A DNA stretch of 64,000 bases from Chloroflexota bacterium (GCA_963663275.1 OY760183.1:2720001-2784000); one strand, 5' to 3'. Counted from the stretch's first letter, positions 3,372 to 55,817 are shown. The notes: generated by a model not told the origin, from the letters alone. A program made the numbers and translations.

Positions 3372-4163
3372 TTGCTGCTTGCCGTTTCTGAAAACATGAT
3401 ACCTGGCGCGGGCTATGGCGAGAAACTCCGCTGCCTGCGTGAGGCCGGCTACGACGGCATCGAACTCTTCCCCGACATTGCCGGCCGGCATACCGCAGAG
3501 CTTAAGCAAGCCATGGCCGATACGGGCATCGTCGCGCCGAGCATGCGCGGCCGCACGCGCGACCTGCTGTCTGCCGATCCGTCCGCGCGCCGCGACCAGA
3601 TCGAGCGCCTGCGGGGTGTCTGCGCGCTGGCCGAGGAGTGCGGTGTGGGCGTGGTGGTCATCGTGCCCGTCTTTGGCGGCCCCAACCTGCCGGATTTGTC
3701 GCCGTGGCGTTCCGCTATCGAACTTGAAGAAGCCCTCCTGGATACGATCCTGCCTACAATCGGCGTGGTCGCGGCGGATCACGGCGTTACGCTGGTAATG
3801 GAGCCGCTCAACCGCTACGAGACCCACTATCTCAAAACCCTGGCGCACGGCGCGGCGCTTTGCCAACGCGCGCACCATCCCAGCGTGCGCGTCATGGCGG
3901 ATTTCTTCCACATGCACATCGAGGAGGCGGACGTAGCCGCGAGCCTTGCCGACAATCTGGCATACGTCAGCCACGTGCACCTGGCCGACAGCAACCGCGA
4001 CCTGCCAGGCAGAGGCCATACGGACTTCGCGCCCGCGTTCCGCGTGTTGAAGCAACGCAGCTTCAGCGGCGCGTTCGCGCTTGAGTGCTCGCGCCGGGGG
4101 TCGCCGGACTTCGGCCTGAAGGAAAGCGCCGCCTACATACGCGGCATTTGGCAGGCGGCCTGA
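3372..4163 (+). CDS. Sugar phosphate isomerase/epimerase (xylose isomerase-like TIM barrel)
   Basis: TTG at 3372 after AGGAGGAGG; EPLNRYE, DFFH, HLADSNR.PG.G motifs. Confidence 0.88.
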   Translation: MLLAVSENMIPGAGYGEKLRCLREAGYDGIELFPDIAGRHTAELKQAMADTGIVAPSMRGRTRDLLSADPSARRDQIERLRGVCALAEECGVGVVVIVPVFGGPNLPDLSPWRSAIELEEALLDTILPTIGVVAADHGVTLVMEPLNRYETHYLKTLAHGAALCQRAHHPSVRVMADFFHMHIEEADVAASLADNLAYVSHVHLADSNRDLPGRGHTDFAPAFRVLKQRSFSGAFALECSRRGSPDFGLKESAAYIRGIWQAA

Positions 4164-4251
4164 GCGGCGACCGGATAGAGCCTCCGCGTGCAATTGCCTG
4201 GTCGGCAGTCTTGCCCCGGCCTAAGCCGCGGCGCGGCCTGCGGCGGCGGAT

Positions 4252-6066
4252 CTATTCCGCGCCGTCGGCCGTAAGCGTGAACGCCACGGCGCGCACGGCC
4301 AGCGGCACCACGTTGCGCACGTGCAGCGTGCGCGCGTCCAGCACGAGAATAGCGCCCGCGTGCGGCGCTAGGGCGTAGAGAATGTTGCGGCCCGGATCGA
4401 GCGCCAACTGCGTAATGCCTCCCCCCTGCCACAACTCGCGCTCCACGCTGCCGTCGGACGTATTGATCATCGTCAACGCCGCCGGCTCTCTGATTTGGCC
4501 AGCCTCATCTGCCGCCGCCTCTTCACCCGCGGCATCCCCACCCGAACTGCCTCCGCTCGAGGAGGTATTGCTCGAGGAGCCGTCGCTGGTCAACCGCGAT
4601 CGAAAGCCGGAAACAAAACCGGTGGCGCCAACGTTGCCGCCGGACGATTGCGTCCGGTCGGCGACCGGCTCATCCGGCAGCGGACCGGTCTCGACGCTCA
4701 GGTAGAGGGCGGCGCCGTCGGCGTCCAGGATGCCATGCGCGGCCCGCGCCGCCGGCAGCGCCGCCACCCGCACGGCCTGGCCGGTGTCCAGGTCTACGCG
4801 CCACAGCGCTTCCGTCTCCGGCGTGGTCACGTAGGCCGAAGCGCCGTCAGCGGCAGGCACGACTGCGCCCAGCGCCAGGCCGGCGCCAATCGTGATGGTT
4901 TCCCCCACGCTGCGGGATTCCAGCTCCACCCGCGCCATCTGCGAGCGGTCGATCGACACGGCCAGTATCGCGGTTTCGCCCAGCGGCAGCAGCCTATCCA
5001 CCGCCCACGGCAACGGAACGTCGGCTGCCGATTCGTCACTCTGATCCGTTACCATCAGCGAGGTGGCGGTGGCGGAACCCACCACCGTGTACGGGCCTGC
5101 GATTGCCAGGCTGCTCCAGTCCTGTTCCGGCAGGCCCATGAGCCGGCCCACCTGCTGGGATTGGGCGTCTACGGTCAGCAATCCGTCTTCTTGCAGAATG
5201 TAGAGGGTTTTGCCGTCGGCGGAAAGTCCCAACGCGCGGGGTTCGCCGCCGACGCCGGTGACCGTAGCCGGCCGCAAATCGACGGCGTCGTACGCCAGCA
5301 ACGCGCCGGTATCGGCAACGCCCAGCACCAGAATCGTCTTCGGCTCCGCGGCGGCCTGTTCCGGCGCGGCCTCGTCCTCCTCCTGAACGCGCAGCAGCGA
5401 GAAGAGCACGGAGCCCGTCAGCGCCAGCGCCAGAAGCGCTATGCCGACCTGCATGACGCGGGTGCGCGTCGTGGTGTCGCCGGTACCGAGCGCGGCGGCC
5501 ACGTCGGCGCGGAGGCCCGCGCCGGGGCGGGGCGCGTGGAGTTGGCGCAAAGCGCGCTCGATCGCGGCGCGGTCGGCATCGCCGTCCGGCGGACGGAACT
5601 CCGCGCGCGCCCGCTCCAGCAGTGACTCCACGCGCTCCAGCGATGCACCCATCGCCTCCGCCGTCTGGCTCTGGGGCATGCCCTCCGCCAGGGTCAGCAG
5701 CCAGACCACGCGCAGGCGCGGCGGCAGCGCGACCGCGGCCTGGCGCCAGGGGAGTGTGCGCTCATCGACCTCCACCGGACCGTCCGGGCGGCGCGAGAGC
5801 CATTGCCACCGCCTGGAAGCGAGAAACGTCCGCACCGCCATGCGATAGAACCAGGTATCCAGCACCATGGTGCGGGGCCGTTTGGGGAAGGCCCGATACG
5901 CGCGGCGGAAGGCGGCCACGACCAACGCGCGCGCTTCGTCCTCGTTCCCGGTGAGCCAGAAGCAGAAGCGGTACAGCATCGGGCCGAACTGATCGTAGAG
6001 CCCGAGGAATGCGTCCCGGTCGCCGCTTTCGGCCGCCGCGAGAATTCGTCCCCGGTTGACAAGCAT
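4252..6066 (-). CDS. ECF sigma factor fused to a TM helix and extracytoplasmic YVTN/YncE-like beta-propeller
   Basis: N-terminal sigma2 (GDRDAFLGLYDQF...TWFYRMA) and sigma4 (LPPRLRVVWLL...EAMG); hydrophobic helix VGIALLALALTGSVLFSLL; blade repeats such as LSADGKTLYI and ALDPGRNILY. Confidence 0.75.
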   Translation of the reverse strand: MLVNRGRILAAAESGDRDAFLGLYDQFGPMLYRFCFWLTGNEDEARALVVAAFRRAYRAFPKRPRTMVLDTWFYRMAVRTFLASRRWQWLSRRPDGPVEVDERTLPWRQAAVALPPRLRVVWLLTLAEGMPQSQTAEAMGASLERVESLLERARAEFRPPDGDADRAAIERALRQLHAPRPGAGLRADVAAALGTGDTTTRTRVMQVGIALLALALTGSVLFSLLRVQEEDEAAPEQAAAEPKTILVLGVADTGALLAYDAVDLRPATVTGVGGEPRALGLSADGKTLYILQEDGLLTVDAQSQQVGRLMGLPEQDWSSLAIAGPYTVVGSATATSLMVTDQSDESAADVPLPWAVDRLLPLGETAILAVSIDRSQMARVELESRSVGETITIGAGLALGAVVPAADGASAYVTTPETEALWRVDLDTGQAVRVAALPAARAAHGILDADGAALYLSVETGPLPDEPVADRTQSSGGNVGATGFVSGFRSRLTSDGSSSNTSSSGGSSGGDAAGEEAAADEAGQIREPAALTMINTSDGSVERELWQGGGITQLALDPGRNILYALAPHAGAILVLDARTLHVRNVVPLAVRAVAFTLTADGAE

Positions 6067-6480
6067 CGCCGCCCTCGGTCCGTTTCACGCTGCGCAATTG
6101 CCTGACTGCATGGTAGCACACAGGGCGCGCCGCCTTGCCGCTCTGCGCGCAAAGTCCGCGCATGGGCAGCGTCCGAGCGGCGCGGCGCCGCAATTGCGCG
6201 AACCACGCGAAAGATGTACCGTACACGTAATCGGAGACACGTTCGCCAACGTCTTCAAGAGCCCTCTATCCGTTCATTTGAGAGGCAATCGGGACGCGCG
6301 ATTCCCGCTTACGCGCCGCTGCCCGGGGGTTTGTCCTCCGTAACATGGCGCGCCAGGCAAGCATTATCATAAGCGCGCGGCACGACTAACCGCGCGCCGT
6401 TCCCGCACAATCGAGGATTCCCTGTGGCATCGACAAGAAGGTCGTTGGTTTCCCATCCCAGCTTGCGCGTCGCCTTCAGG

Positions 6481-7743
6481 ATGTTCGAGTCGGTGCGGAT
6501 TCCCGCCTTCCGCGACCTGTGGATCGGCATGCTCGCCTCGTACGTGGGCATGTACATGGGAATGGTCTCGCGCGGGTACCTGGCCTATGAGCTAACCGGA
6601 TCGGCGACGGTGCTCGGAGTCGTCACCGTCGCGTCGGGAGTGCCCATGCTGCTCCTCTCTCCGCTGGGGGGCGTTCTGGCGGACGTGATGAACCGCCGCT
6701 TCATCCTGATTCACAGCCAGACCTTCATGGTGGTTTCGTCCCTGCTCCTTGCCGCCCTCATTCATCTAGACCTAATCGCCATTTGGCACCTTGTCTTCTT
6801 CGGCTTTCTGCAAGGCGTCCTCTTCACCGTCAACATGCCCGCGCGCTCTTCCGCCCTGCCGCACCTGGTGGGCAGGCCCATGCTGCCCAGCGCAATCGGA
6901 CTGACCAACTCGGGACGCAACCTGATGTCGGTGATTGCCCCGGCCATTGCCGGCACCGTGATCGCGATTCCCTGGCTGGGCACGGCCGGCGCTTTCGACA
7001 TTGCCGCGTTTTGCTACGTGCTCGCAACGTTGCTGATGCTGCGCCTGCCTAAGAGCCTGGCGGACGGGCGCAAGCCGACCGAGGTTGCGCTTGCCCGGCA
7101 GATGATCGATGGCTTCAGTTACATGTTCACGCGCCGCGACCTGCTCGTGCTGCTCGTGCTGGGACTCGTCCCCATTCTCTTCGGTATGCACGTGCACTCC
7201 TTCATGCCGGTGTTCCAAGCGGACGTGCTTGGCGTTGGGGCGGTAGAGTTGGGCCTGCTGCTCTCGGCGCTGGGGGTCGGCGGCACCTTCGGCTCGCTCG
7301 TCATCGCGCCGCTGGCCGAGAGCAAGCACAGCCACGTCATGCAGCTTGCCGCGGGCATCTTCTTCGGCCTGACCCTCATCGCGTTTGCCAGTAGCACGTC
7401 GTTCACCTTCAGCTTGATTACGGCCGGGTGGGTCGGCTTCGCGGGGAATGCCTCCACGGGCCTCAACAGCGCCTTGCTGATGCTGCGGGCGGAGGAGGCG
7501 TACTATGGGCGCGTGATGAGCATCTACATGATGAACTGGTCGCTCATGACGCTCTTCACGCTGCCCCTGGGCATGCTGGTGGACCGCTGGGGCGCGCCGC
7601 TGGTGGTAAGCGTCACCGGAATGGGCATTGTGCTCTTCATGGCCGCCGCGTTCTTCCTCTTCCGCGACGTCCGCGAAGACCGGCCCCACAGCGAGGAGTT
7701 AAGCGTCGAAACCGGCCCCGCAGCCGTTGAGAAGAGCGTCTAG
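6481..7743 (+). CDS. MFS transporter (DHA3/H+ antiporter-like)
   Basis: About 12 TM helices; FRDLW and GGVLADVMNRR motif A; start may be GTG 6424. Confidence 0.88.
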   Translation: MFESVRIPAFRDLWIGMLASYVGMYMGMVSRGYLAYELTGSATVLGVVTVASGVPMLLLSPLGGVLADVMNRRFILIHSQTFMVVSSLLLAALIHLDLIAIWHLVFFGFLQGVLFTVNMPARSSALPHLVGRPMLPSAIGLTNSGRNLMSVIAPAIAGTVIAIPWLGTAGAFDIAAFCYVLATLLMLRLPKSLADGRKPTEVALARQMIDGFSYMFTRRDLLVLLVLGLVPILFGMHVHSFMPVFQADVLGVGAVELGLLLSALGVGGTFGSLVIAPLAESKHSHVMQLAAGIFFGLTLIAFASSTSFTFSLITAGWVGFAGNASTGLNSALLMLRAEEAYYGRVMSIYMMNWSLMTLFTLPLGMLVDRWGAPLVVSVTGMGIVLFMAAAFFLFRDVREDRPHSEELSVETGPAAVEKSV

Positions 7744-9028: not shown

Positions 9029-9190
9029 CAATGCTGTCGCATTAACGTAGCGTGGGGGCTTGTCCCCCGCCGGTATGGGAAGAATGAGAAAGAAATGGAT
9101 TGACCATACGGAAGACGCAGGTTACAAACCTGCGCTACCGGAGAAATGAGCGTAGTTTTCACTCTCATTGCGTTTAGTGCGACAACATTA
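9029..9190. mobile_element. IS4-like MITE (MITE-C, 162 bp)
   Basis: TIR CAATGCTGTCGCATTAA / TTAGTGCGACAACATTA; perfect 11-bp duplication CCCACAAGGGG at 9018-9028 and 9191-9201; inverted copy at 50211-50387. Confidence 0.85.
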
Positions 9191-37191: not shown

Positions 37192-37252
37192 GGTAGCGCA
37201 GGTTTCCAACCTGCGCCCTCTGTCATCGGCGGGGGACAAGCCCCCGCGCTAC
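37192..37252. repeat. GTAG-type REP-like palindrome pair
   Basis: GTAGCGCAGGTTTCCAACCTGCG and GGGGACAAGCCCCCGCGCTAC; same units near 9050, 50115-50440 and 52440-52600. Confidence 0.7.
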
Positions 37253-44410: not shown

Positions 44411-45583
44411 ATGGCCTACGACCTGATTCTGCGCAACGGCGACATCATCGATCCCGGCGAGAGCCGGCGCTTCACCGGCGACGTCGGCATAACCGGCGGC
44501 AAGATCGCCGCCATCTGCGAGGGTACGCTTGCGGATAGCGGCGCGCGGGAAATAGACGTTGCGGGACAGCTAGTCACGCCCGGTCTCGTGGACCTGCACG
44601 GGCACTGCTACTGGGGCGTAGGCGGCGTCGGCCTCGACCCGGACCTGGTCGGCGCGCGGCACGGCGTGACCACCTGGATCGACCCCGGCAGCAGCGGCGC
44701 GGCCACGTTTCCGGCGTTCAAGCGCTTCATCATCGAGCCGTCCCAGGTGCGCGTCATACCCCTGCTCAATCTCAGCGCCAAGGGCCTGGTGCACTCCCAG
44801 GGGTTTGGCGAACTCAACGACATTCGCTACATCGATTCCGACCTCAGCGCCGCCATGCTGGAACTCCATCGCGGCCTCATTGCCGGCATCAAGGTTCGTT
44901 CCGGCCGTTCCAGCACCGGGCAGATGGGCATGACCCCGCTGTGGATTGGGCGCGAACTCTGCGACCAGTTTTCGATCCCGCTCATGGTGCACATCTCCAA
45001 CGTCGCGCCCACCTTGCAGGAGTTGCTGCCGATGCTGCGCAAGGGCGACATCGTGACCCACTGCTTCCACGGCAAGATGGGCGGCGTCCTGATGCGCGGC
45101 CGGGTGCGGGACGAGGCCTGGGCGGCCCGGGAGCGCGGCGTGCTCTTCGACATCGGCCACGGCAACAGCAGTTTCTCCTTTCCGGTCACCGCCGCGGCCA
45201 TGGAACAGGGCTTTCCGCCCGACTCCATCAGCACCGACCTGCACCAGGTCAGCATCCGCAGCACGGCCAAGAGCTTTCCCCACGTCATGTCCAAGTTTCT
45301 GGCTCTCGGCATGGACCTCGAAACCGTGGTGCGACTCAGCACGCTCATTCCCGCGCAAGCCATGGGGCATGAAGACGTCTGCGGGCAATTGCGTGTCGGC
45401 GCGCCGGCGGACATCGCGGTCTTCCGCGTTCACACCGGCGACTACACCTTCGACGATCCCCAGGGCGTGGAGCGCGACGGCACGCAGGAGTTGGAGAACA
45501 CGCATACGATTGCCGGCGGCGTGCTCCTCGACCGGAGCCGGGACCCGCTGGCGGACAAGCCGTTTCCCATGGCTACCATCTAG
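44411..45583 (+). CDS. Amidohydrolase (dihydroorotase/deacetylase-like)
   Basis: PGLVDLHGH, GIKVR, MVH, THCF, DIGHG, ISTDLH. Confidence 0.88.
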   Translation: MAYDLILRNGDIIDPGESRRFTGDVGITGGKIAAICEGTLADSGAREIDVAGQLVTPGLVDLHGHCYWGVGGVGLDPDLVGARHGVTTWIDPGSSGAATFPAFKRFIIEPSQVRVIPLLNLSAKGLVHSQGFGELNDIRYIDSDLSAAMLELHRGLIAGIKVRSGRSSTGQMGMTPLWIGRELCDQFSIPLMVHISNVAPTLQELLPMLRKGDIVTHCFHGKMGGVLMRGRVRDEAWAARERGVLFDIGHGNSSFSFPVTAAAMEQGFPPDSISTDLHQVSIRSTAKSFPHVMSKFLALGMDLETVVRLSTLIPAQAMGHEDVCGQLRVGAPADIAVFRVHTGDYTFDDPQGVERDGTQELENTHTIAGGVLLDRSRDPLADKPFPMATI

Positions 45584-45643
45584 CGGGCAGACGTGCCCCC
45601 GGATCGCTAGTAGCGCAACGAGCACCTTGGATTAGACGAGAAA

Positions 45644-47164
45644 ATGCGTCTCCGATTCCTCCACGCCGCCGACCTGCATCTTGGCTACCAGCAATACGGC
45701 CTGGTGCAGCGTTACGACGACTTCACCGACGCCTTCCGGTGGGTGGTAGATACCGCGCTGGCGGAACGGGTTGACTTCCTCCTGATTGCCGGGGATCTCT
45801 TCGAAAAGCGCACTCTCGACCCGCGCACGCTGCTCATCGCCGTTACTGAATTCAAGCGACTGCAAGCGGCAGACATCCCGGTTGTCGCCATCGAGGGCAA
45901 TCACGAGCGCGCCTACGGCGACAGTCTCTCCTGGCTGGAGTACCTGAACCACAGCGGTCTGCTCTACCTGCTCGATTGCGCGCCCGGCGACCATGGCTGG
46001 CTGCCCCAACCCTGGGACGAGGCGGAGCGCGCCGGCGGCTACGTGGACCTGGCCGGCGCGCGCATCTACGGCCTCAAGTATCGCGGGGCGCAGACCGGCG
46101 CCGCGCTTCACGAAATCGGTACCGCCATCGCCGCCGCGCCGGCCGCCGCGGACTTTGCTATCTTGATGTCGCATACCTCTGTTGAAGGCTATTTCGACTT
46201 AGGGCATCCGTTCGCGCGCCTGAACGAACTGAGCGCGCTGCGACCGCGCATTGATTATCTCGCGCTCGGCCACGTCCATACTCCCTACAGCGGCGCGCTG
46301 GGCGGCAGGGAGTGGCTCTTCAATCCGGGGTGCCCGGAGACGTGGAGCAGCACAGAGTGGCAATACCAGGACAAAGGCGCCTACCTCGTGGAAGTAGACA
46401 CCGACCGGACACCGGCGTTCCAGGCTACGATGCGCAACTACCCGCGCCGCCGCCCTTTCATTCACATCCGGCAGGAAATGGACGCCTGCCCCTCTCCCGG
46501 CGCGCTCGCGCAACTGCTCGCGGAGAAGATCGACCGTGAGCCGGAACCGGCCGCGGTCGCGGAATCCCTGGCGGTGGAAGAAGGGGCACGCGCGGCGGGC
46601 GGCAGCGCTTCCCACGCGCCCAAAGCCCCGGTGGTTGAAGTCCTGCTCACCGGCATAGCCCGCTTCTCGCGCACGGAAATCGACACCGGGGCCATCGAGC
46701 AACTGGTGCGGCGGCGCTTCGACCCGCTGCTCGTGCGCGTACGCTCGTCGCTCCAGGAAGCGCCCGCGAGCCTGGTGGAAGGCGGGGACACGCTCGACCG
46801 GCACGTGCTGGAACGCCTGGTATTCGAGAACCTGATCCGGGCCGACGATCGCTTTGCCGCGACGGCGGCGGACGCGGCCCAGATCGCGATCGCCCTCAAG
46901 CAGATGACGCTCGACGGCGTGGCGGCTCACGAAATCGCGGAAGAGGTGACGAGCCGCCTGCGCGCCCAGGGGCAAACGGCGCGGGACGACGGGAGCCAAC
47001 CCGCCACGGCAAGCGCCGCCGACGCTCTGCCGAGCGCGGCAGTCCCAGGCGCGCCGCGCGGCGAGAGCGGCAGAGACGATGAGCAACTCCCGCTGCACGC
47101 GCCGCAAGAGTGGCCTGCCGCCTCAGACCTGGCGCCTGCGGAAGACGAAAAGAAGCCGGACTAA
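45644..47164 (+). CDS. Mre11/SbcD nuclease
   Basis: ADLHLG, AGDLF, GNHE, SH, LGHVH, NPG phosphoesterase motifs; low-complexity C-terminal tail. Confidence 0.92.
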   Translation: MRLRFLHAADLHLGYQQYGLVQRYDDFTDAFRWVVDTALAERVDFLLIAGDLFEKRTLDPRTLLIAVTEFKRLQAADIPVVAIEGNHERAYGDSLSWLEYLNHSGLLYLLDCAPGDHGWLPQPWDEAERAGGYVDLAGARIYGLKYRGAQTGAALHEIGTAIAAAPAAADFAILMSHTSVEGYFDLGHPFARLNELSALRPRIDYLALGHVHTPYSGALGGREWLFNPGCPETWSSTEWQYQDKGAYLVEVDTDRTPAFQATMRNYPRRRPFIHIRQEMDACPSPGALAQLLAEKIDREPEPAAVAESLAVEEGARAAGGSASHAPKAPVVEVLLTGIARFSRTEIDTGAIEQLVRRRFDPLLVRVRSSLQEAPASLVEGGDTLDRHVLERLVFENLIRADDRFAATAADAAQIAIALKQMTLDGVAAHEIAEEVTSRLRAQGQTARDDGSQPATASAADALPSAAVPGAPRGESGRDDEQLPLHAPQEWPAASDLAPAEDEKKPD

Positions 47165-47170
47165 CACCCG

Positions 47171-50086
47171 ATGCGCATCACCGCGGTCTCTCTCAAGAAC
47201 GTTAAGAGCTACCAGGAAGCGACCGTTCCCTTCCCACCGGGCACGGTTGCCATCTCCGGGCCGAACGGCGCCGGCAAGAGCACCATCCTGGAGGCGATCG
47301 GCTTCGCGCTCTTCGATTTCCTGCCCTATCGCAACCAGCGGGAGTTCATGCGCCACAATGCCACCGAGGCGGACGTGCGCGTGACCTTCCTTTCGCGTCT
47401 CGATGAGTGCGAGTATCAAGCGGTGCGCACCCTCAAGCGCGCCACCGGCAGCGCGGACACCGTCACGTCGTCCTACTTCGTCTACAGCTTCGATACCCAC
47501 GAGCAGGTGGCGCGGCAAAAGGAGGAGGTGCAGGCGTTCCTGCGCCGCCACGTCGGTCTGGACGACTACGACGACCTGGCCCGCGTCTTTGCCGACGTGC
47601 TGGGCGTGCCCCAGGGACGCTTGACCGCGGACTTCCTGCTCACCCCCGCGCAGCGGAAACAGACCTTCGATCCCCTGCTGCGGGTGGACGCCTACCGCCG
47701 GGTCTTCGCAAAGCTGCGGGACGTGCTGGACGCGCTGCAAGGCAAGGTGGCGGAACACGAGCGGCAGGTTTCCGGGCTGGAACCCCAGGCCGCGCGCCTG
47801 CCGGACGCGCTGTCGGCGCTGGCTCAGCATAAAGCGGAATACGCCGAGGCGGCGGCGCAATCGAGCGCCCTGTCCGCGGACCTGAAGCGCCTCCAAGCGG
47901 ACTTGAGCAACCTGGAAACGCAGCGCCGCGCGCTGGAGCAACAACGTGGAATTGCAAAGCAACTGACCCAACAGCAGGAAAACCTGCAAAAGCGCCTGGA
48001 AACCGAGCGCGCGCAGGTCGCAGCGGCACGGCAGGCGGCGGCGCGCACACACAGCGCCAAAGCCGGCTACGCCGCCTACCGCGAGGCGCAAGACACACTG
48101 GCAACGCTTGAAGGAGAGCGCAAAGACGCCGACGCTCTCCGCGCGACCGAGCGGACCTTGGAAAACAAACTCGTGGCGCTGGAGACTCAGCGAGCGGCGC
48201 TCAGAAAAGGCGTGGAGGAAGCAAGCCAGGCGGCGGCGCGCATAGCGGCCCTCGCGCCGGACGTCGCGCGGCAGGAGGAGTTGGAGGCGCGGGCGCGCGA
48301 ATTCGGCCAAGACCTGGGCTTCGCGCGGCAACTTGGCCGCCAGATAAACCAGGCGTTGCGGCGGCTCACCGCCAGCGCGCCGGACGAGCGGCTGGCGTTT
48401 GCGGAAGGCCCCCTGCCGGTGGAAACGGACAAGGATGCCGCGCGCGCCCGGGCAAAACTCGCGGAACAGTACGAGCGTTTGCAGGAAGTCGCGCCGTGGC
48501 TCCAGCAGCGCGACGGGTGCCGCCGCCAACTCCGGCAATCGCGTCCGGAACGCGAGCAAGTCGCCCAGGCGGTGGCGCGCTGCCGTACCTTCCTGGAAGC
48601 CGCCGCGCGCCTGCCTGACCTTGAAACGGAATTGCAGTCTGTGCAGGAGAAGATAGGCGCGTACCAAGCGCAGCGGCGCTTCAACGAGCATTCAAGGAGT
48701 ATGGCCGCGGACGGGCTCTGTCCCTTCTTCCAAGACCAGTGCCCCAAGGTGGACGACGGCCACAGCCTCATTCCCGTCATTGCCACCCTCATACGCGACT
48801 ACGCGGATCATGCCGCGCAGGCGCTAACGGCAAGAAAGAAACTGGCAAGCGAGGTTGCCAAGGCGCGCGCGGCGCAACAGGAAGCAAACCGCCTCACCGA
48901 CCTGGAACCGCGCTTGCGGCAACTCGACGACGAGATGCTGGCGCTCACGCGACAAGAGCGAGACCTGACCCAGCGCATCGATGCGCGCCTGCGGGAGATT
49001 TGGCGACCTGAAGCGATTGCCGAAACGCTTTCTTTGCTGGAGGGCGAGGAAGAGTCGCTGGCGCAACAGCTCAAGCGATTGGGCAATCCCCGCCAGGAAG
49101 TCGAACGACTGCACGGAGCGGCCGGCGAGCATAAAGCGCGCACACAGGCGCTGGACGCGGTTTCCACAGAACATGAGCGCGTCGCCAAAGAGTTGGCACA
49201 CGTCGCCGCGCGCCTCGAACCGTACGCCGACCTCGGCAATCGCCTCACCGCGCAGCGCACGCTCATCGAAACACACCGGCACGCTCACGACACCTACTTG
49301 CGCTACCAGGAAACCGCCGCCGATCTGCCGCGCCGTGAAGAAGCCGAGAGGGTCCTGGCAAGCGATGTGGAAGAGAACGAGCGCGCGCTCCGCGAATCCG
49401 CGCAGACGCTTGCAGCGAGCGAGTCCGCCTGGGATCCGGCCGCGCTCGCCGGCGCGCAAGCCGGCGTGAACCGTACGCAAGGCCGGTTGGGCGCGGCAAA
49501 CGAACGCTCCCGCTTTCTCAGCGAGCGGATTGCGGCCGCCAGGCGGGAAATTGCCGAATTGGAAGAGGCGGCGCGGGCGCTGGAGGAGGCCCGGATCGCG
49601 CTGGCCGAGGCGCGGGAGGTGCGCGCGGTGACGGGCTTCCTGCGCGACGTCATCCGCGACGCCGGGCCCCACGTCGCCCGCCACCTGATCCAGCAAGTCT
49701 CGGCGGAGGCCAACACGCTCTTCAGCGAGATCATGGGCGACGCCAGCGCGGAACTCTCGCTCACGGAGGACTACGACATTCTGCTGGAGCAGCACGGCCA
49801 CCGGCGCGGCTTCATGCAGTTGTCCGGCGGCGAGCAGATGAGCGCGGCGCTGGCTGTGCGCCTGGGCCTGCTGCGCCAACTCTCCGACCTGGACATTGCC
49901 TTCTTCGACGAACCGACCCAGAACATGGACGTCGAACGCCGCCACAATCTTGCCGAACAGCTTGAACGAGTAACGGGCTTCCACCAACTCTTCGTCATCA
50001 GCCACGACGATACGTTCGAACCGCTGGTCTCCACGGTGCTGCGCGTGCGCAAGGAGAACGGCGTGAGCACGGTGGAGCAGTTATAG
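47171..50086 (+). CDS. Rad50/SbcC SMC-family ATPase
   Basis: Walker A GPNGAGKST, Q-loop VPQG, coiled coil with central CPFFQDQCP, LSGGEQ, FFDEPT, ISH. Confidence 0.93.
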   Translation: MRITAVSLKNVKSYQEATVPFPPGTVAISGPNGAGKSTILEAIGFALFDFLPYRNQREFMRHNATEADVRVTFLSRLDECEYQAVRTLKRATGSADTVTSSYFVYSFDTHEQVARQKEEVQAFLRRHVGLDDYDDLARVFADVLGVPQGRLTADFLLTPAQRKQTFDPLLRVDAYRRVFAKLRDVLDALQGKVAEHERQVSGLEPQAARLPDALSALAQHKAEYAEAAAQSSALSADLKRLQADLSNLETQRRALEQQRGIAKQLTQQQENLQKRLETERAQVAAARQAAARTHSAKAGYAAYREAQDTLATLEGERKDADALRATERTLENKLVALETQRAALRKGVEEASQAAARIAALAPDVARQEELEARAREFGQDLGFARQLGRQINQALRRLTASAPDERLAFAEGPLPVETDKDAARARAKLAEQYERLQEVAPWLQQRDGCRRQLRQSRPEREQVAQAVARCRTFLEAAARLPDLETELQSVQEKIGAYQAQRRFNEHSRSMAADGLCPFFQDQCPKVDDGHSLIPVIATLIRDYADHAAQALTARKKLASEVAKARAAQQEANRLTDLEPRLRQLDDEMLALTRQERDLTQRIDARLREIWRPEAIAETLSLLEGEEESLAQQLKRLGNPRQEVERLHGAAGEHKARTQALDAVSTEHERVAKELAHVAARLEPYADLGNRLTAQRTLIETHRHAHDTYLRYQETAADLPRREEAERVLASDVEENERALRESAQTLAASESAWDPAALAGAQAGVNRTQGRLGAANERSRFLSERIAAARREIAELEEAARALEEARIALAEAREVRAVTGFLRDVIRDAGPHVARHLIQQVSAEANTLFSEIMGDASAELSLTEDYDILLEQHGHRRGFMQLSGGEQMSAALAVRLGLLRQLSDLDIAFFDEPTQNMDVERRHNLAEQLERVTGFHQLFVISHDDTFEPLVSTVLRVRKENGVSTVEQL

Positions 50087-50114
50087 CAATGAGAACGCGC
50101 CTGCCGCGCCAGAC

Positions 50115-50440
50115 GTAGCGCGGGGTCTCGTCCAAATTACCGTGTGATTGTCGTAGCGCGGGGGCTTGTCCCCCGCAGTCTTCACCGGCGTAGCGCGGGT
50201 GGCTTGTCCCTAATGTTGTCGCATTAGACGCAATGAGAATGAAAACTACGCTCTTTTCTCCGGTAGCGCAGGTTCGCACGAGACGTGCGCATAACCTGCG
50301 TCTTCCGCAGGGTCAATCCACTCCCTTCTCACGTTACTTGCTCCGGCGGGGGACAAGCCCCCGCGCTACGTTAATGCGATATCATTGGGGCTCGTCCCCC
50401 GCCCGCACATCCGGCGCAGGTTACAAACCTGCGCTACCGG
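50115..50440. mobile_element. GTAG REP cluster containing an inverted copy of IS4-like MITE-C (50211-50387)
   Basis: TIR TAATGTTGTCGCATTA/TAATGCGATATCATTG; imperfect 11-bp duplication TGGCTTGTCCC/GGGCTCGTCCC; interior is the reverse complement of 9029-9190. Confidence 0.8.
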
Positions 50441-50488
50441 AAAGTTGAAAGACACTAATATCCTTGCTTATGGAATGCGAATACTGCC

Positions 50489-51688
50489 GTGTTCTACCGT
50501 GACAAGACACTAGAGGCGCTCAACGCCAAGCGCGCCACACTTACAGAGTTGGACGCCGAGCAGCGTCTCCGCCTGCGGGAGTTGTATGCCGCCCGCGATG
50601 CCCTCTCCAGCATGACCGCCGACGAACTCTGCGAACGGCTCGCGCCGGTAAAGGCCCCCGGCGCGCGTCCCACCGCCGAATTCGACCGCGCGCCGGGGCT
50701 GCGCATCGCATTCTCGGAGTCTTGGGATAACCTGGCCGCCATGCGCCGCTGGGCCGCGGACACACTCGCCAACGTCACCACCTGCGCCGTGGACGGCAGC
50801 CAGTTGCCGGCCACCAAGGACTTTCCGCTGCCGGTAGCCGCCGTGCAAGTCGCGTGGTTCACCAACCGCCACGCGGCGAACGGCGAATATGAGAAGAACG
50901 CCCACGTCGAGGTGCTGACGCCGCGGGAACTTGGTGACGACGAGAGCGACGCCAACATGTGGGTCAACCTCCATCGGTATGAGCTTGAGGTAGCCCGCAT
51001 CAAGACCTTCATGCGGGAACAGCAGCGCCTGGACAAACGCGCGGTTGCGCTCTTCGACGGCTCGCTCACGGTCTCGTTCGCCGGCCCTCTTCCCGATGAC
51101 GCGCGCAATCGCTATCGCGCCGCCGCCGTGAGCATGCTGCGCGTATCCGAGGAGTGCGAGATTCCGCTCGTCGCTTACATCGATCGGTCCCGCGCCCGCG
51201 ACTTTACGCGCATGTTGTGCTATGTCCACGGCGCCAGTCTCACCGACGCCGCGCTCATCAGCGATGCCGCGCTCCTGGATACGCCCCACGCGGACATGCC
51301 GTTTTGGAGACTGCCCGCGTTCCTGTGCCAGCGGCAAGACGTGGTGCAAGACGACAACTACACGGACGCCGAAACAGACAGGAACTTCGCCAATGAAATC
51401 TGCTTTACGTATCTCAAGATCAACAACGGCCCGCCGGCGAGGCTGGAGTTCCCGGCCTGGCTACTGCGCGCCGGTGCGCTCGACCGCGTGGTAGACTGGG
51501 TACGCGCCGAGGCCATCGCCGGCGGCGGCTACCCGTACGCGATTCAGGCAGCGGACGCAGCGGCGGTGATTACCTTCGAGGACCGGCAGCGGTACCTGCG
51601 CGCGCTGGAAGAGTTCGGACGGCGCCACGACATTCGCACCATGCAGGCGTCGTCGAAGCAGGCGAGCAAAGAACGGCGGCGGGCGTAA
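50489..51688 (+). CDS. nurA: NurA nuclease
   Basis: AVDGSQ, FDGSL, RLEFP, GYPYAIQAADAAA; between rad50 and herA. Confidence 0.87.
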   Translation: MFYRDKTLEALNAKRATLTELDAEQRLRLRELYAARDALSSMTADELCERLAPVKAPGARPTAEFDRAPGLRIAFSESWDNLAAMRRWAADTLANVTTCAVDGSQLPATKDFPLPVAAVQVAWFTNRHAANGEYEKNAHVEVLTPRELGDDESDANMWVNLHRYELEVARIKTFMREQQRLDKRAVALFDGSLTVSFAGPLPDDARNRYRAAAVSMLRVSEECEIPLVAYIDRSRARDFTRMLCYVHGASLTDAALISDAALLDTPHADMPFWRLPAFLCQRQDVVQDDNYTDAETDRNFANEICFTYLKINNGPPARLEFPAWLLRAGALDRVVDWVRAEAIAGGGYPYAIQAADAAAVITFEDRQRYLRALEEFGRRHDIRTMQASSKQASKERRRA

Positions 51689-51700
51689 AGGGCAAGAGTG

Positions 51701-52378
51701 ATGGCGGGAAACGCAATCGGACGTATCGTCAAGTCGAATTCCCATACGGATTACGTCTGCCAGGTCTTCGCTCCCCGCGAAACGGCGCGCGACCCGCAGC
51801 CGGAAGATTACGCGTTCGGTCGCTTTGTAGAAGCGCCCATCGACCCCGCTGCCGCCGGCTCATCCTTCGACAGGCTCAGGACGAACGGCGGCGAGCGCGC
51901 TCTCGACAGGGACGGGACGAACGGCGGCGAACGCGCGGCGGTGGGCATCGTCTACGATACGATTCTCCTCAACCCGGAGTACGGCAGCCTCGGCCCCCGG
52001 CTGAATCCACCCGGCGATCAAGCCACGCTGGCGCCGGACTACCTGGTGGAGAAAGCGACCGCCGTCGGCATACTCGTCGTCGGGCTGCGCGCGGGCGAGG
52101 CGAATAACCACGGTGTCATCCCGCTCTCGCTGCCCGTGGACGCCGAGGTTTCCAGCATGAGCGCGGACGACGTGCGGCGCTTCCATGAGGTGGACGGCCG
52201 GCTGTCGCTCGGCTACCTGCCCCATCTCGTCTCGCACCAGAGCCCGCTGGTTACGGAACTCGGCCTCACCGTCATTCGCCACCTGCTCACGCTCTTCCCC
52301 GCGCCCGGCGAGCAGCGCCTCCTGCGCACCCTAGCCGCCCACCTCTCCTGGCAGGCGCGAGTCACGCCGCTCGGGTAG
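51701..52378 (+). CDS. Stand-alone HAS-barrel-like protein with in-frame palindromic insertion
   Basis: IGRIV...FGRFV...VGIVY...ILVVG...PVDAEV pattern resembles the HerA N-terminal barrel; no ATPase motifs; start 51698 or 51701. Confidence 0.65.
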   Translation: MAGNAIGRIVKSNSHTDYVCQVFAPRETARDPQPEDYAFGRFVEAPIDPAAAGSSFDRLRTNGGERALDRDGTNGGERAAVGIVYDTILLNPEYGSLGPRLNPPGDQATLAPDYLVEKATAVGILVVGLRAGEANNHGVIPLSLPVDAEVSSMSADDVRRFHEVDGRLSLGYLPHLVSHQSPLVTELGLTVIRHLLTLFPAPGEQRLLRTLAAHLSWQARVTPLG

Positions 52379-52435
52379 GCCGGTTTGACGCCTGCCGTTC
52401 GCCCCAAGCCTGTCGACTTTGAAGAGATGCCCTCC

Positions 52436-52601
52436 GGTAGCGTAGACTTGCAACCCGCGTCCATACACTCCGGTAGCGCAGGTTTGTAACCTGCGTCTTC
52501 CGTAGGGTCAATGCATTCCGTTCTCAATGTTCTAGCTCCAGCGGGGGACAAGCCCCCGCGCTACGTTTGCGCGACATCATAGGGACAAGCCCCCGCGCTA
52601 C
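52436..52601. repeat. GTAG REP cluster / partial MITE-C
   Basis: Interior matches 50260-50387; degenerate right TIR GCGACATCATA followed by GGGACAAGCCC. Confidence 0.7.
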
Positions 52602-52752
52602 GCCTCGCCCTGTGCGTGTGCGGGCATGACATGGGCTAAGCGCCGCGTGAGAACGCCTGGGATGGCGCAACCCATCCGTTCGCGGCCCCATGCTCTGGTA
52701 CACTAGGGAGTACGTTCAATTCCGTGTTCGGAGAGTATGAGGTAAACGGCGT

Positions 52753-53526
52753 ATGCGCGAAAATTCGGTCAAGCAACTCCTCGCCGCGGGCAGACCCGCC
52801 ATCGGCACGTGGCTTACCCTGGGCGATCCCCTGGCAACCGAGACCCTGGCGCACCTGGGGTTCGACTGGCTCAACGTGGACATGGAGCACGGTTCCATTG
52901 ACGTCCGCGAAACCCGCGCGCTCTTCCAGGTGATCAACACTACCGACGTGGTTCCTACCGCCCGCGTGCCCTGGAACGATCACGTGTGGATCAAGCGCGT
53001 GCTCGACGCCGGCGCGTACGGCGTGGTGGTGCCGATGGTGCGCACACGGGAAGAGGCCGAGCGGGCCGTGGCCGCCTGCCGCTATCCGCCGGCCGGCATT
53101 CGCAGCATCGGCAGCGGACGCAACCACTACGCTTTTCGCACCACGCAGGCCGCATACCTGGAACACGCCAACGACCAACTGCTTGTCGTCATCCAGATCG
53201 AGCACGCCGACGCCATCCGGCGGCTGGACGACATCCTCAGCGTGCCCGGCATCGACGCCGCCTTCATCGGCCCCAACGACCTCTGCGCCTCCCTGGGCCT
53301 GCCGCCCAGCACCGATAGCGATCATCCCGATTTCGAAGCCGCCATTGCGCAGGTCGTGACCGCGGGACGGAAGCACGGCGTCGCGCCGGGCATCCATACG
53401 AGTTCCGGTGAGGCCCTGAACAAGCGGCTGGAGCAGGGCTTTCGCTACCTGGGACTGGCCAACGACCAACGCTTGCTCATCAAGGGCGCGAGTGATGAAC
53501 TGGACGTCATCTGGCGCGAGCAATAA
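52753..53526 (+). CDS. HpcH/HpaI aldolase
   Basis: DMEHG, ARVP, RYPP.G.R, QIE, FIGPNDL. Confidence 0.92.
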   Translation: MRENSVKQLLAAGRPAIGTWLTLGDPLATETLAHLGFDWLNVDMEHGSIDVRETRALFQVINTTDVVPTARVPWNDHVWIKRVLDAGAYGVVVPMVRTREEAERAVAACRYPPAGIRSIGSGRNHYAFRTTQAAYLEHANDQLLVVIQIEHADAIRRLDDILSVPGIDAAFIGPNDLCASLGLPPSTDSDHPDFEAAIAQVVTAGRKHGVAPGIHTSSGEALNKRLEQGFRYLGLANDQRLLIKGASDELDVIWREQ

Positions 53527-53602
53527 TCTCGGGTTCGATTGAGACACGGCGGGAGCAAACCGCGCCGCCGCTGAGAAACGCCGCAGGCAAGAGCGCGATT
53601 CG

Positions 53603-55480
53603 ATGATTATAGGAATTGCCAAAGGTCCCGGCGAAACACCGAACGAATATACGTTCGTCACGCCCGATACCGAACGCCGGGTAAAGACGAGCGAGTTCGT
53701 CTATTACGAAGCGGAGGTTGACGGCACGCAGCGCCAGATTTTGGGCCGCGTGATACGGCGGATTCCGCTGCGCCTCTACCCCGATTCTTTTCTGGCGCAC
53801 CCGGAAGTAGACCCGGCCCAGATGGCGGCGCTGGTCGGCTACCAGAGCGCCGGCGAGCCCACCAACGACGGCGGCGAGGACGCCGGCGACTCCGCTGCCG
53901 AACTCTTCGAAATTCACGTCAGCATCATGGGCTACCACGACGAAGCGTTGAGCGCCTTCGTCAATCCCCGCATCCCGCCGCGCATCGGCTGGAAGATCTA
54001 CCTGGCCGCCGACGACATGCTCACCGAGGTGCTCAACCGCGTCGCGTTCGACTGGCAGGCGGGGGAAGCGCGGCCGGGGGGCGCGTACGTGGGGTCTCTG
54101 CTCTCGCGGCCCGCTCTGGATTTGCGCTCAGGACAAGCCAATGGCGTGCCGGTGGTGCTCGACGTGCGCTCGATTACGGCCACCCACATGGCTGTCATCG
54201 CCGGCACGGGCGCGGGCAAGAGCTACCTGGCCTCGGTGCTGATAGAGGAGATGATGAAGCCCCTCAACCGCGCCAGCATCCTGGTCGTGGACCCCCACGG
54301 CGAGTACGACACGCTGGAGGAGATTCGCAACGCCGCCGACTTTCGCGCCGACGACGGCTACAAGGCGGACGTCAAGACCGTTCCCCAGGACCAGGTGAAG
54401 ATTCGCGTCTCCGAACTCACGCAATTCGACCTGCGCTTTCTCCTGGGCGCGCAGTACGGGTTCTCCGGCCCCATGGAATACGTGCTTGGCAACGCGCTGG
54501 AACGGGTAAGGAAGGACCGGGGCGACAAGACGCCCTGGACGAAGAACGACCTCTACGCCGCCCTGGAGTACATGCAAGACGGAGAAGACGAACCGGCTTC
54601 AGGCCAAGACCGTCATTCCCGCGCAAGCGGGAATCCATCCGCCGGTGACGACGATCCCCTCAGCTTCCTCGACACCGCCGGCACCAACGAGCGGCAGAGT
54701 TCGCGCGCCAAGCCCGACCTCCAGATGCGCGGCAGCGCGCGGGCGGTCGATTGGCGGCTCCGCAGCCTCTTTGCCGAAGCGCCGAACTTCGACGACGTGG
54801 ACAGCATCAACCTCCAGGAGGTCTTCCGCCCCGGCCTCTGCTCCGTCCTGCAACTCAACGAAATCGACCGCCGCCAGCAGCAGGTCATCGTGGCGGTGCT
54901 CCTGCGCATGGTGTGGAAGGCGCGCATGAACGCCGTGAAAGGCGTCGGCAACCCCAAAGACCGCCTTGATTACCCGGTCTTCATCCTGCTCGAGGAAGCC
55001 CATCACTTCGCGCCGGCCAATGAAGACGTGGTGACCACGAACATTCTCAAGACCATTCTCGCCGAGGGGCGCAAGTTCGGCGTCGGCGTGGGCCTCATCA
55101 GCCAGCGCCCCGGCAAGCTCGATTCCGACGTGCTCTCCCAGTGCATGACCCAATTCCTGCTGCGCATCGTCAACGAGTACGACCAGAGCAGCGTGGCCGC
55201 CGCCGTTGAGAGCGCGAGCCACGACCTGTTGGCGGAACTGCCGGCGCTTTCCAAAGGACAGGCAATCGTCGCCGGGGCCGCCGTCAACACGCCGCTCTCG
55301 ATCCGCGTCAGGCAGCGCATCACGCGCCACGGCGGCGCGGAACCCGACGCGCCCAGCGAGTGGCGGTCTTTCTTCTCAGAGGAGGCGGCGCGCCGCCGGG
55401 AAGTTGACGCCTCCGGGCCGCCGGAAGGCCCGCCCCGCGGCCTTAGCAATATCCTCCGGAAGAGCCGCGACCGGCCCTAG
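53603..55480 (+). CDS. herA: HerA/FtsK-family DNA translocase with N-terminal HAS barrel
   Basis: HMAVIAGTGAGKS, DPHGEY, LEEAH, EGRKFG, SQRP, SQC. Confidence 0.9.
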   Translation: MIIGIAKGPGETPNEYTFVTPDTERRVKTSEFVYYEAEVDGTQRQILGRVIRRIPLRLYPDSFLAHPEVDPAQMAALVGYQSAGEPTNDGGEDAGDSAAELFEIHVSIMGYHDEALSAFVNPRIPPRIGWKIYLAADDMLTEVLNRVAFDWQAGEARPGGAYVGSLLSRPALDLRSGQANGVPVVLDVRSITATHMAVIAGTGAGKSYLASVLIEEMMKPLNRASILVVDPHGEYDTLEEIRNAADFRADDGYKADVKTVPQDQVKIRVSELTQFDLRFLLGAQYGFSGPMEYVLGNALERVRKDRGDKTPWTKNDLYAALEYMQDGEDEPASGQDRHSRASGNPSAGDDDPLSFLDTAGTNERQSSRAKPDLQMRGSARAVDWRLRSLFAEAPNFDDVDSINLQEVFRPGLCSVLQLNEIDRRQQQVIVAVLLRMVWKARMNAVKGVGNPKDRLDYPVFILLEEAHHFAPANEDVVTTNILKTILAEGRKFGVGVGLISQRPGKLDSDVLSQCMTQFLLRIVNEYDQSSVAAAVESASHDLLAELPALSKGQAIVAGAAVNTPLSIRVRQRITRHGGAEPDAPSEWRSFFSEEAARRREVDASGPPEGPPRGLSNILRKSRDRP

Positions 55481-55616
55481 GGGCTGAACGGTCGATAGGC
55501 GTTCACACCTTGCGTGTCGGTGTCAGATTTGGGCTCAGCGACTGTGCCCGGTCGCTGTCACTGTTCGCATGTACGCTCGCAGCTTGCAAACTTGCCGTTG
55601 CGCGGGAACTGGTCCC

Positions 55617-55817
55617 AAATGGTGTCGCGTTAATTCGTAATGCATACCGCGGTCCCCCAAATCTTGAGAGATGGATGAGCGCGCGCAGCCGTTCGCCTTG
55701 AGCCTGTCGAAAGGTGAACGGGGGTTGGTTGTGACGCACTGTACTACCCGTTCATACTTCGACGGGCTCAGCACGAACGGGTAGTACAGTGCTCATCAGT
55801 TCTACGCGACAGCACTG
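55617..55817. mobile_element. Element with MITE-C-like ends carrying a GTTC..GAAC hairpin doublet
   Basis: Ends AATGGTGTCGCGTA / TACGCGACAGCACTG, within a degenerate GTAG-type REP; 18-bp perfect stem at 55736-55792. Confidence 0.6.

Follow-up and report, generated by a model that had tools for sequence, protein, structure and literature searches.

A predicted free-standing HAS-barrel protein labelled DUF8166 is linked to herA in archaeal-type mre11-rad50-nurA-herA clusters of Chloroflexota

Positions 45644-55480 of a 64,000-nucleotide stretch from a Chloroflexota bacterium (GCA_963663275.1 OY760183.1:2720001-2784000; the whole stretch is called the window below) carry genes for Mre11, Rad50, NurA and HerA together with a gene for a small, predicted barrel protein that carries the label of family DUF8166. 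Across relatives the conserved core of this cluster is the DUF8166-herA pair; the five-gene operon is one layout among several, and the window's genome has it in a loosened form. We consider it probable that the cluster is a chromosomal, vertically inherited, housekeeping system for the resection of double-strand break ends, of the archaeal Mre11-Rad50/NurA-HerA type, in which DUF8166 would be an accessory subunit of HerA. The mre11-rad50-nurA-herA set is best known from heat-loving archaea, and bacterial end resection is usually described as the work of RecBCD, AddAB or AdnAB. The observations made here concern the genes present, the folds of their products, the conservation of motifs, and how the genes are linked and distributed, in a genome that is a single contig of 3.53 Mb, 99.6% complete and Chloroflexota according to the names on related records.

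The original prediction, made from the DNA alone, had placed five co-oriented genes in this interval, and open reading frame (ORF) calls and Pfam matches confirm all five on the + strand; a sixth gene, coding for an aldolase, and two repeat-bearing spacers had been passed over. The six genes run in the order mre11-rad50-nurA-DUF8166-aldolase-herA, and the Pfam assignments looked for in the four enzymes, Metallophos, SMC_N, NurA and HerA central domain, were all obtained. Mre11 and rad50 are separated by 6 bp, and nurA and the DUF8166 gene by 9 bp.

mre11, 45644-47164, + strand: 506 residues, archaeal-type Mre11 nuclease (by score) with a long acidic C-terminal tail; Pfam Metallophos 4.4e-16
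rad50, 47171-50086, + strand: 971 residues, SMC-like ABC ATPase with a coiled coil; SMC_N 7.9e-21, AAA_23, SbcC_Walker_B
rad50-nurA spacer, 50087-50488, no strand: 402 bp with REP-like (repetitive extragenic palindromic) inverted repeats
nurA, 50489-51688, + strand: 399 residues, predicted RNase-H-like 5'-3' nuclease; Pfam NurA PF09376 1.5e-30
DUF8166 gene, 51698-52378, + strand: 226 residues, predicted free-standing HerA-type HAS barrel with a C-terminal helical hairpin
spacer after the DUF8166 gene, 52379-52752, no strand: 374 bp with a REP-like repeat
HpcH/HpaI-family aldolase gene, 52753-53526, + strand: 257 residues; Pfam HpcH_HpaI 1.8e-40
herA, 53603-55480, + strand: 625 residues, predicted FtsK-HerA-type hexameric translocase; HerA central domain (DUF87) 1.2e-32

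The 226-residue ORF had no match in our Pfam, NCBIfam and PADLOC scans, the Pfam copy scanned being one without the PF26500 model; the precomputed Pfam label PF26500 is attached to the protein and to all 113 relatives found, and the names of Atlas clusters give DUF8166. An AlphaFold model of the protein, with 34 relatives in the alignment, has a mean pLDDT of 82.8 and a pTM of 0.78. When this model was compared with the PDB using Foldseek, the matches listed were all HerA-containing entries, with the HerA-NurA complex of Thermococcus kodakarensis best at 2.3e-6 and Sir2-HerA, DUF4297-HerA, Deinococcus radiodurans HerA and Sulfolobus solfataricus HerA among the others. The Foldseek-independent method VIA-align placed residues 5-166 of the model on residues 1-108 of 9c1m_M (Z 12.5, root-mean-square deviation 2.6, 108 aligned) and gave further Z scores of 10.9 for 4d2i_B, 10.5 for 8wiv_A, 10.0 for 8j4u_M, 9.8 for 8wet_A, 9.0 for 9x1l_A and 8.2 for 7f6d_B. 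From these structural matches, residues ~4-166 are predicted to be a HerA-type HAS barrel, and the description of the fifth component as HAS-barrel-like thus proved apt. In the model, residues ~179-226 form a helical hairpin with generic structural matches only. HerA keeps an N-terminal barrel of its own, in that its first 190 residues are conserved and, modelled alone (pLDDT 71.4), match HerA chains, so that the barrel of DUF8166 would be an extra one. A prediction of the complex of HerA (625 residues) and DUF8166 (226 residues), run without controls, gave scores of 0.25 and 0.11, where the mark is 0.32, and counts as evidence in neither direction.

The DUF8166 family is small and nearly always free-standing; 344 representative clusters were found at E<=0.001 and 109 at E<=1e-30, and the 150 cluster representatives listed range from 72 to 448 residues. 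Among 34 sequences, down to 33% identity, 23 columns are invariant, and the most conserved stretch, LNPxFGSLGPRLSP...SPDYLxEK, covers residues about 90-118, with N92, P93, G99, P100, R101, P113, D114, Y115 and E118 invariant. Within the Pfam family DUF8166 (PF26500), the window's copy has a genus-specific low-complexity insertion of ~25 residues with a repeated TNGGER motif at residues ~52-76 (window 51850-51930), which is absent from the 198-204-residue forms of most members of the genus and is longer in one of them (G011). We found no paper that uses the term DUF8166, and the family has no described function. Beyond the Chloroflexota, Atlas clusters of DUF8166 have labelled members that are mostly Cyanobacteriota, with one further cluster mixed with Methanobacteriota, all on automatic labels only; a search started from a divergent member (P0264) matched only 2 proteins, both unnamed.

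Relatives were scanned with one genome per species, giving matches to DUF8166 as intact open frames in 395 species genomes, and the best 80 loci were examined. All 80 carry labels of Chloroflexota lineages or are unclassified (Anaerolineae, Caldilineaceae, Ktedonobacteria, Ardenticatenia and Thermosporothrix hazakensis among the labels). Sixty-six loci extend by 2.5 kb or more beyond the downstream end of the DUF8166 gene, and in 59 of these a co-oriented herA gene follows within 3 kb. In 8 loci the stop of the DUF8166 gene and the start of herA overlap by 4 nt (ORFs called from the first start codon), which suggests translational coupling. The upstream side is more variable: among the 57 loci in which the sequence reaches 6.5 kb or more upstream, mre11, rad50 and nurA all precede the DUF8166 gene in 24, 14 of these in the window's genus and 10 elsewhere, and nurA alone of the three precedes it in 4. 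The order mre11-rad50-nurA-DUF8166-herA, free of the aldolase gene, was read in three genomes from other families of the same class (G017, G023 and G039) and five-gene order was also read in 10 further loci outside the genus. Where the DUF8166 gene lacks these upstream genes, nurA was found elsewhere in all 5 of the genomes checked, and at two of those loci the neighbours are unrelated genes. As a side observation, in a Ktedonobacteria-like genome a 241-residue ORF with no NCBIfam match (L109 7723-8448, - strand) follows rad50-nurA at a locus that has no DUF8166-herA pair.

DUF8166 is present in 16/16 other genomes of the window's genus and in 4/24 other sampled genomes of the class (21/41 with the window's genome included). 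In a wider sample of the phylum, comprising 201 genomes of at least 90% completeness from 120 genera, it occurs in 47 genomes and 26 genera, and all 47 hold a single copy; the tallies include two unpublished genomes, G191 (DUF8166 and NurA) and G069 (NurA). Within a family, nearly all genomes or nearly none have it, for example 7/7, 4/4, 7/7, 14/15, 3/3 and 3/3, and this pattern, together with the presence of the gene throughout the genus, supports vertical inheritance. NurA is encoded in 133 of the 201 genomes, representing 78 of the 120 genera, and accompanies DUF8166 in 45 of 47 genomes, the two exceptions (G050 and G112) being fragmented assemblies. In the window's genome nurA and herA are each single copy.

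An AddB-like frame of 1000-1150 residues was found in 15 of the 201 genomes, in none of them above the model cut-off, and in none of the DUF8166 families named in that tally. The original prediction had proposed that the genome be checked for RecBCD, AddAB and AdnAB; no RecC was found in the window's genome, and neither was a nuclease-helicase of AddAB/AdnAB size or an AddB-like match. Its sole PDDEXK_1 domain is in a 304-residue frame, and its UvrD-type helicase domains are only in frames of 838 and 1718 residues, at other sites. RecJ is present (518 bits versus a cut-off of 397), and the cluster would probably be the main helicase-nuclease route beside it. Two further observations concern genes of this kind. 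The 1718-residue frame, with UvrD-helicase matches at ~3171369-3171974, is probably the counterpart of a DEAD/Helicase_C-UvrD fusion in a relative, G005, where a gene for a 1708-residue DEAD + UvrD helicase (L033 11426-16552) directly follows the DUF8166 gene in place of herA. In addition, the window's genome has, outside the window, a second sbcC-like gene, of bacterial type (G000:C1:3412162-3414691; L113 about 3856-6710), whose sequence is divided among three or more reading frames and whose C-terminal part gives 123.6 bits with the sbcC model TIGR00618; this gene is either decayed or hit by assembly indels.

Catalytic motifs were read by eye in the translations. Mre11 has all five phosphoesterase motifs, I-V (DLH, GDLF, GNHE, SH and GHVH), Rad50 has the Walker A motif GPNGAGKST, a Q-loop, the signature LSGGEQ, the Walker B motif FFDEPT and the H-loop SHD, NurA has VDGSQ and FDGSL (PF09376 107 bits versus a cut-off of 21), and HerA has the Walker A motif GTGAGKS and the Walker B motif LLEEAH. 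The claim that these motifs are intact in the four enzymes therefore holds as far as their presence goes, and it needs amending at two places. The hook of Rad50, at 48.7 kb of the window, reads CPFFQDQCP, i.e. C-x6-C instead of CxxC, and is followed by an insertion of ~8 residues; the C-x6-C form is found in 15/15 sequences of the genus (the window and 14 others) and in one further locus (L070). The remaining 15 of the 31 aligned Chloroflexota relatives have CxxC. Motif III of NurA carries an H (AH) in a 2026 review of NurA, and here it reads ADA, with D in 39/39 aligned relatives. The elements DGSQ, E, DG[ST] and ADA are conserved in all of these 39, and the constant D at motif III suggests that the pattern, which looks like a D/E/D/D active site, is not that of a decayed one.

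The scores of three of the enzymes bear out the description of the cluster as archaeal in style. Mre11 has its best PDB match in Pyrococcus furiosus Mre11 (1ii7, 1.2e-25), versus 7e-9 to 5e-6 for the SbcD proteins of Thermotoga and Escherichia coli, and in NCBIfam it scores 1.1e-29 with Mre11_Pyroc versus 2.1e-16 with sbcD. Rad50 scores 3.9e-54 with the archaeal model PRK03918 versus 1.4e-25 with sbcC, and HerA scores 4.7e-54 with the archaeal helicase_HerA model. A HerA profile run against the PDB gave 1.4e-65 for T. kodakarensis and 3.8e-48 for S. solfataricus, 1e-32 to 4e-20 for the HerA proteins of anti-phage systems and 0.0095 (17.7 bits) for D. radiodurans HerA, which is absent at 1e-3 when a single sequence is used. 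Mre11, Rad50 and HerA thus score nearest the archaeal repair proteins, where "archaeal-type" denotes a score ranking and not a phylogeny. The grouping with the HerA-NurA of Deinococcus, which the original prediction had set beside the archaeal one, does not emerge from the profile scores, given the marginal HerA value and the lack of any solved NurA matched at E<=1.

The archaeal operon (Sulfolobus, Pyrococcus and Thermococcus) shares with the present cluster the same four enzyme families, clustered and co-oriented, a HerA that has the barrel and both Walker motifs, and a NurA with the DG motifs. It differs from it in host, in the order of the genes, which here is mre11-rad50-nurA-X-herA, in having no fifth, DUF8166 barrel protein, in the hook of Rad50, which in the window's genus is C-x6-C, and in motif III of NurA, where D stands in place of the H given in the review. 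The NurA-HerA pairs of D. radiodurans and Thermus thermophilus resemble this one in having a bacterial host and in the overall fold of HerA (7wrw and 7f6d are among the fold matches), whereas by sequence the D. radiodurans HerA is barely detectable. For the Deinococcus and Thermus systems, neither a link to mre11-rad50 nor a partner from DUF8166 has been described to our knowledge. Our search found no literature that treats NurA and HerA in Chloroflexota or this gene arrangement, which the original prediction did not know to be characterised; older comparative-genomic remarks on bacterial clusters lie outside this search. The 2026 review gives the Thermus and Deinococcus proteins as the only characterised bacterial NurA.

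Several observations weigh against a resection system with DUF8166 as a regular part of it. None of mre11, rad50 and nurA stands upstream of the DUF8166 gene in 29 of the 57 loci, and in four of the loci of this kind where the context of the distant nurA was examined, it adjoins rad50 in three and is alone in one. Six of the 7 loci that lack herA downstream of the DUF8166 gene belong to the window's own genus, in which the aldolase gene and a repeat-bearing spacer also break the tight adjacency of the pair. In three genomes of relatives (G004, G005 and G013) an aldolase-herA-oxidoreductase block lies far from mre11-rad50-nurA-DUF8166, the distance between herA and the DUF8166 gene being about 1 Mb in G004 and about 3 Mb in G005, so that HerA and DUF8166 would have to meet in trans. 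NurA is present in 133/201 of the sampled Chloroflexota and DUF8166 in 47/201, from which NurA-HerA can evidently do without DUF8166. DUF8166 has no detectable sequence similarity to the N-terminus of HerA (hhalign probability 0.28%), and its most conserved loop, at ~90-118, is modelled with low confidence. The archaeal NCBIfam models, while the best scoring of the models, all fall far below their equivalog cut-offs (183.9/970 bits for HerA, 184/700 for Rad50 and 103.6/600 for Mre11), and NurA has no sequence match among solved NurA structures, archaeal ones included, even as a profile at E<=1. These last two results indicate, at the level of sequence scores, that the cluster proteins form a distinct bacterial branch and are not a recent archaeal import. 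The linkage of DUF8166 and herA, taken with the variable upstream genes, identifies the pair as the core; the idea of a five-protein machine, put forward in the original prediction, keeps the support of gene linkage, and loses that of the five-gene set as the conserved unit.

Rivals to the resection system were weighed against the same data. If the gene for the 226-residue protein were a detached N-terminal fragment of a disrupted herA, or a duplicate in decay, and as such had no function, this would account for its fold, which is that of the HerA N-terminus, and for its position upstream of herA. We regard this as hardly credible and have rejected it: the conservation data contradict it, with 344 clusters at E<=0.001, 23 invariant columns and frames that are intact in 395 species genomes; a conserved N-terminal barrel is present in HerA itself, and the lack of sequence similarity between DUF8166 and that N-terminus makes it neither a split herA nor a recent duplicate. 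It is unlikely, to a much smaller degree, that DUF8166 is a regulator or decoy, a barrel mimic that sits on the NurA-docking or oligomerisation surface of HerA and holds the motor inactive until there is damage, or that it works with HerA apart from NurA and Mre11-Rad50. The gene is linked to herA and not to nurA, the pair stays joined where rad50-nurA is elsewhere, the protein has the barrel fold with no ATPase domain, and most NurA-bearing Chloroflexota do not have it, all of which would suit such a role. Set against this, the 4-nt overlap with herA in 8 loci agrees with synthesis of the two proteins in equal amounts, as is commoner for subunits than for regulators, and NurA is kept in 45 of the 47 genomes that have DUF8166.

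We judge it quite improbable that the cluster is an anti-phage or anti-plasmid system for destroying linear foreign DNA, with HerA-NurA as effector, Rad50-Mre11 as sensor and DUF8166 as a specificity or immunity subunit. PADLOC does match Rad50 (LmuB 2.2e-35, mad3 1.2e-31) and HerA (HerA models down to 1.4e-47, mad8 1.2e-19), but these matches are limited to generic SMC and HerA ATPase cores, and neither NurA nor DUF8166 is matched. The 2026 review says that bacterial NurA-HerA mainly degrades foreign double-stranded DNA, and Blackwood et al. (2012) discuss a possible genome-protection role for HerA-NurA. In the anti-phage Sir2-HerA (Nezha) and DUF4297-HerA systems and in the TdpAB system a partner protein sits on the barrel face of a HerA hexamer, as would be the case here, and the DUF8166 barrel has its best structural matches among them (9c1m_M, 8j4u_M and 8wet_A). 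Their partners, however, are Sir2, DUF4297 and TdpB effectors, where here there are NurA and a catalytically featureless barrel, and HerA is far closer by score to the archaeal repair proteins than to the HerAs linked to Sir2 or DUF4297. Among the neighbours scanned there is no Sir2, DUF4297, methyltransferase, LmuA-like partner or mobile-element gene; the flanking genes are of metabolic kinds and keep their synteny throughout the genus, a housekeeping context, and the single-copy, near all-or-none occurrence of DUF8166 by family is unlike that of patchy defence islands. The defence alternative, which the original prediction had left beside repair, accordingly finds no support in gene context.

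For the end-resection system that we favour, the activities, the assembly of the complex and the part played by DUF8166 are drawn by analogy from the archaeal and Deinococcus systems. Mre11-Rad50 would recognise and trim DNA ends, and the HerA hexamer would then pass duplex DNA along its central channel to a NurA dimer held on the HAS-barrel face, giving processive resection. Where HerA-NurA complexes have been solved, the ring that the HAS barrels form is the site at which NurA docks, and an additional free barrel with a conserved loop and a hairpin would be in a good position to extend this face, to adapt it or to gate it. We infer that DUF8166 is a stoichiometric accessory subunit of HerA, which most likely makes up a ring of barrels, or enters one, on the face where NurA docks and may there adapt or gate the coupling of HerA to NurA and/or Mre11-Rad50. 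A conserved loop modelled with low confidence often marks a site of partner binding, and the loop of DUF8166 may be one.

The aldolase, with scores of 1e-55 to 1e-59 for the HpaI and GarL models of NCBIfam, below their cut-offs, is always encoded directly 5' of herA in the window's genus and accompanies herA when the block is relocated. No aldolase gene was found between the DUF8166 gene and herA in the loci examined outside the genus, and it is probably a metabolic passenger specific to the genus. An antisense ORF (52636-53661, 341 residues, no Pfam match) that overlaps the aldolase gene was treated as a chance ORF of high-GC sequence. The REP-like element is a GC-rich palindrome of 24 nt with 5 copies in the window versus 0 expected, two of them inverted in the rad50-nurA spacer, one in the spacer at 52379-52752 and the others at 9047-9070 and 37229-37252; the inverted arms in the rad50-nurA spacer are 30 nt long and 93% complementary. 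The repeats of the two spacers sit at exactly those points at which the operon has come loose or apart in the genus. A scan of 45300-55800 for consensus promoters and terminators returned 1 promoter-like and 12 terminator-like sites, with no excess over shuffled sequence, and transcription units are not defined by it.

The genes adjoining the cluster code, by Pfam, for an amidohydrolase, an oxidoreductase of the GFO/IDH/MocA family and an aldo-keto reductase, the amidohydrolase and oxidoreductase flanks being those that are syntenic across the genus, and further out there are genes for an aminotransferase, a thiamine pyrophosphate (TPP) enzyme, NAD(P)HX repair, methionine-synthase-like proteins and succinyl-CoA ligase. 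No mobile-element or defence partner genes are present among the neighbours examined. Upstream of the cluster, a 140-residue ORF at 43496-43918 matches the nucleotidyltransferase substrate-binding (HEPN-like) family at 3.3e-12 and may be half of a small toxin-antitoxin-like pair.

In the usual picture NurA-HerA is archaeal, with two odd bacterial cases, Deinococcus and Thermus. The finding of NurA in 133/201 Chloroflexota, of the full mre11-rad50-nurA-X-herA order in several lineages and of AddB-like frames in 15/201 goes against this picture. As a tentative and rather doubtful extension, DUF8166 might represent a new class of subunit for FtsK-HerA motors, a free-standing ring of HAS barrels stacked on the barrel crown of HerA, with the loop and hairpin docking NurA and/or Mre11-Rad50; the four enzymes would then make up a single gated resection holoenzyme, the main end-resection machine in a large part of the Chloroflexota, where it would replace RecBCD/AddAB. 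If this were true, the DUF8166 subunit would also serve the HerA systems of cyanobacteria and of some archaea. The DUF8166-herA pair is carried by a cultured organism, Thermosporothrix hazakensis (L093), and DUF8166 is a concrete, testable candidate for how HerA couples to its partners.

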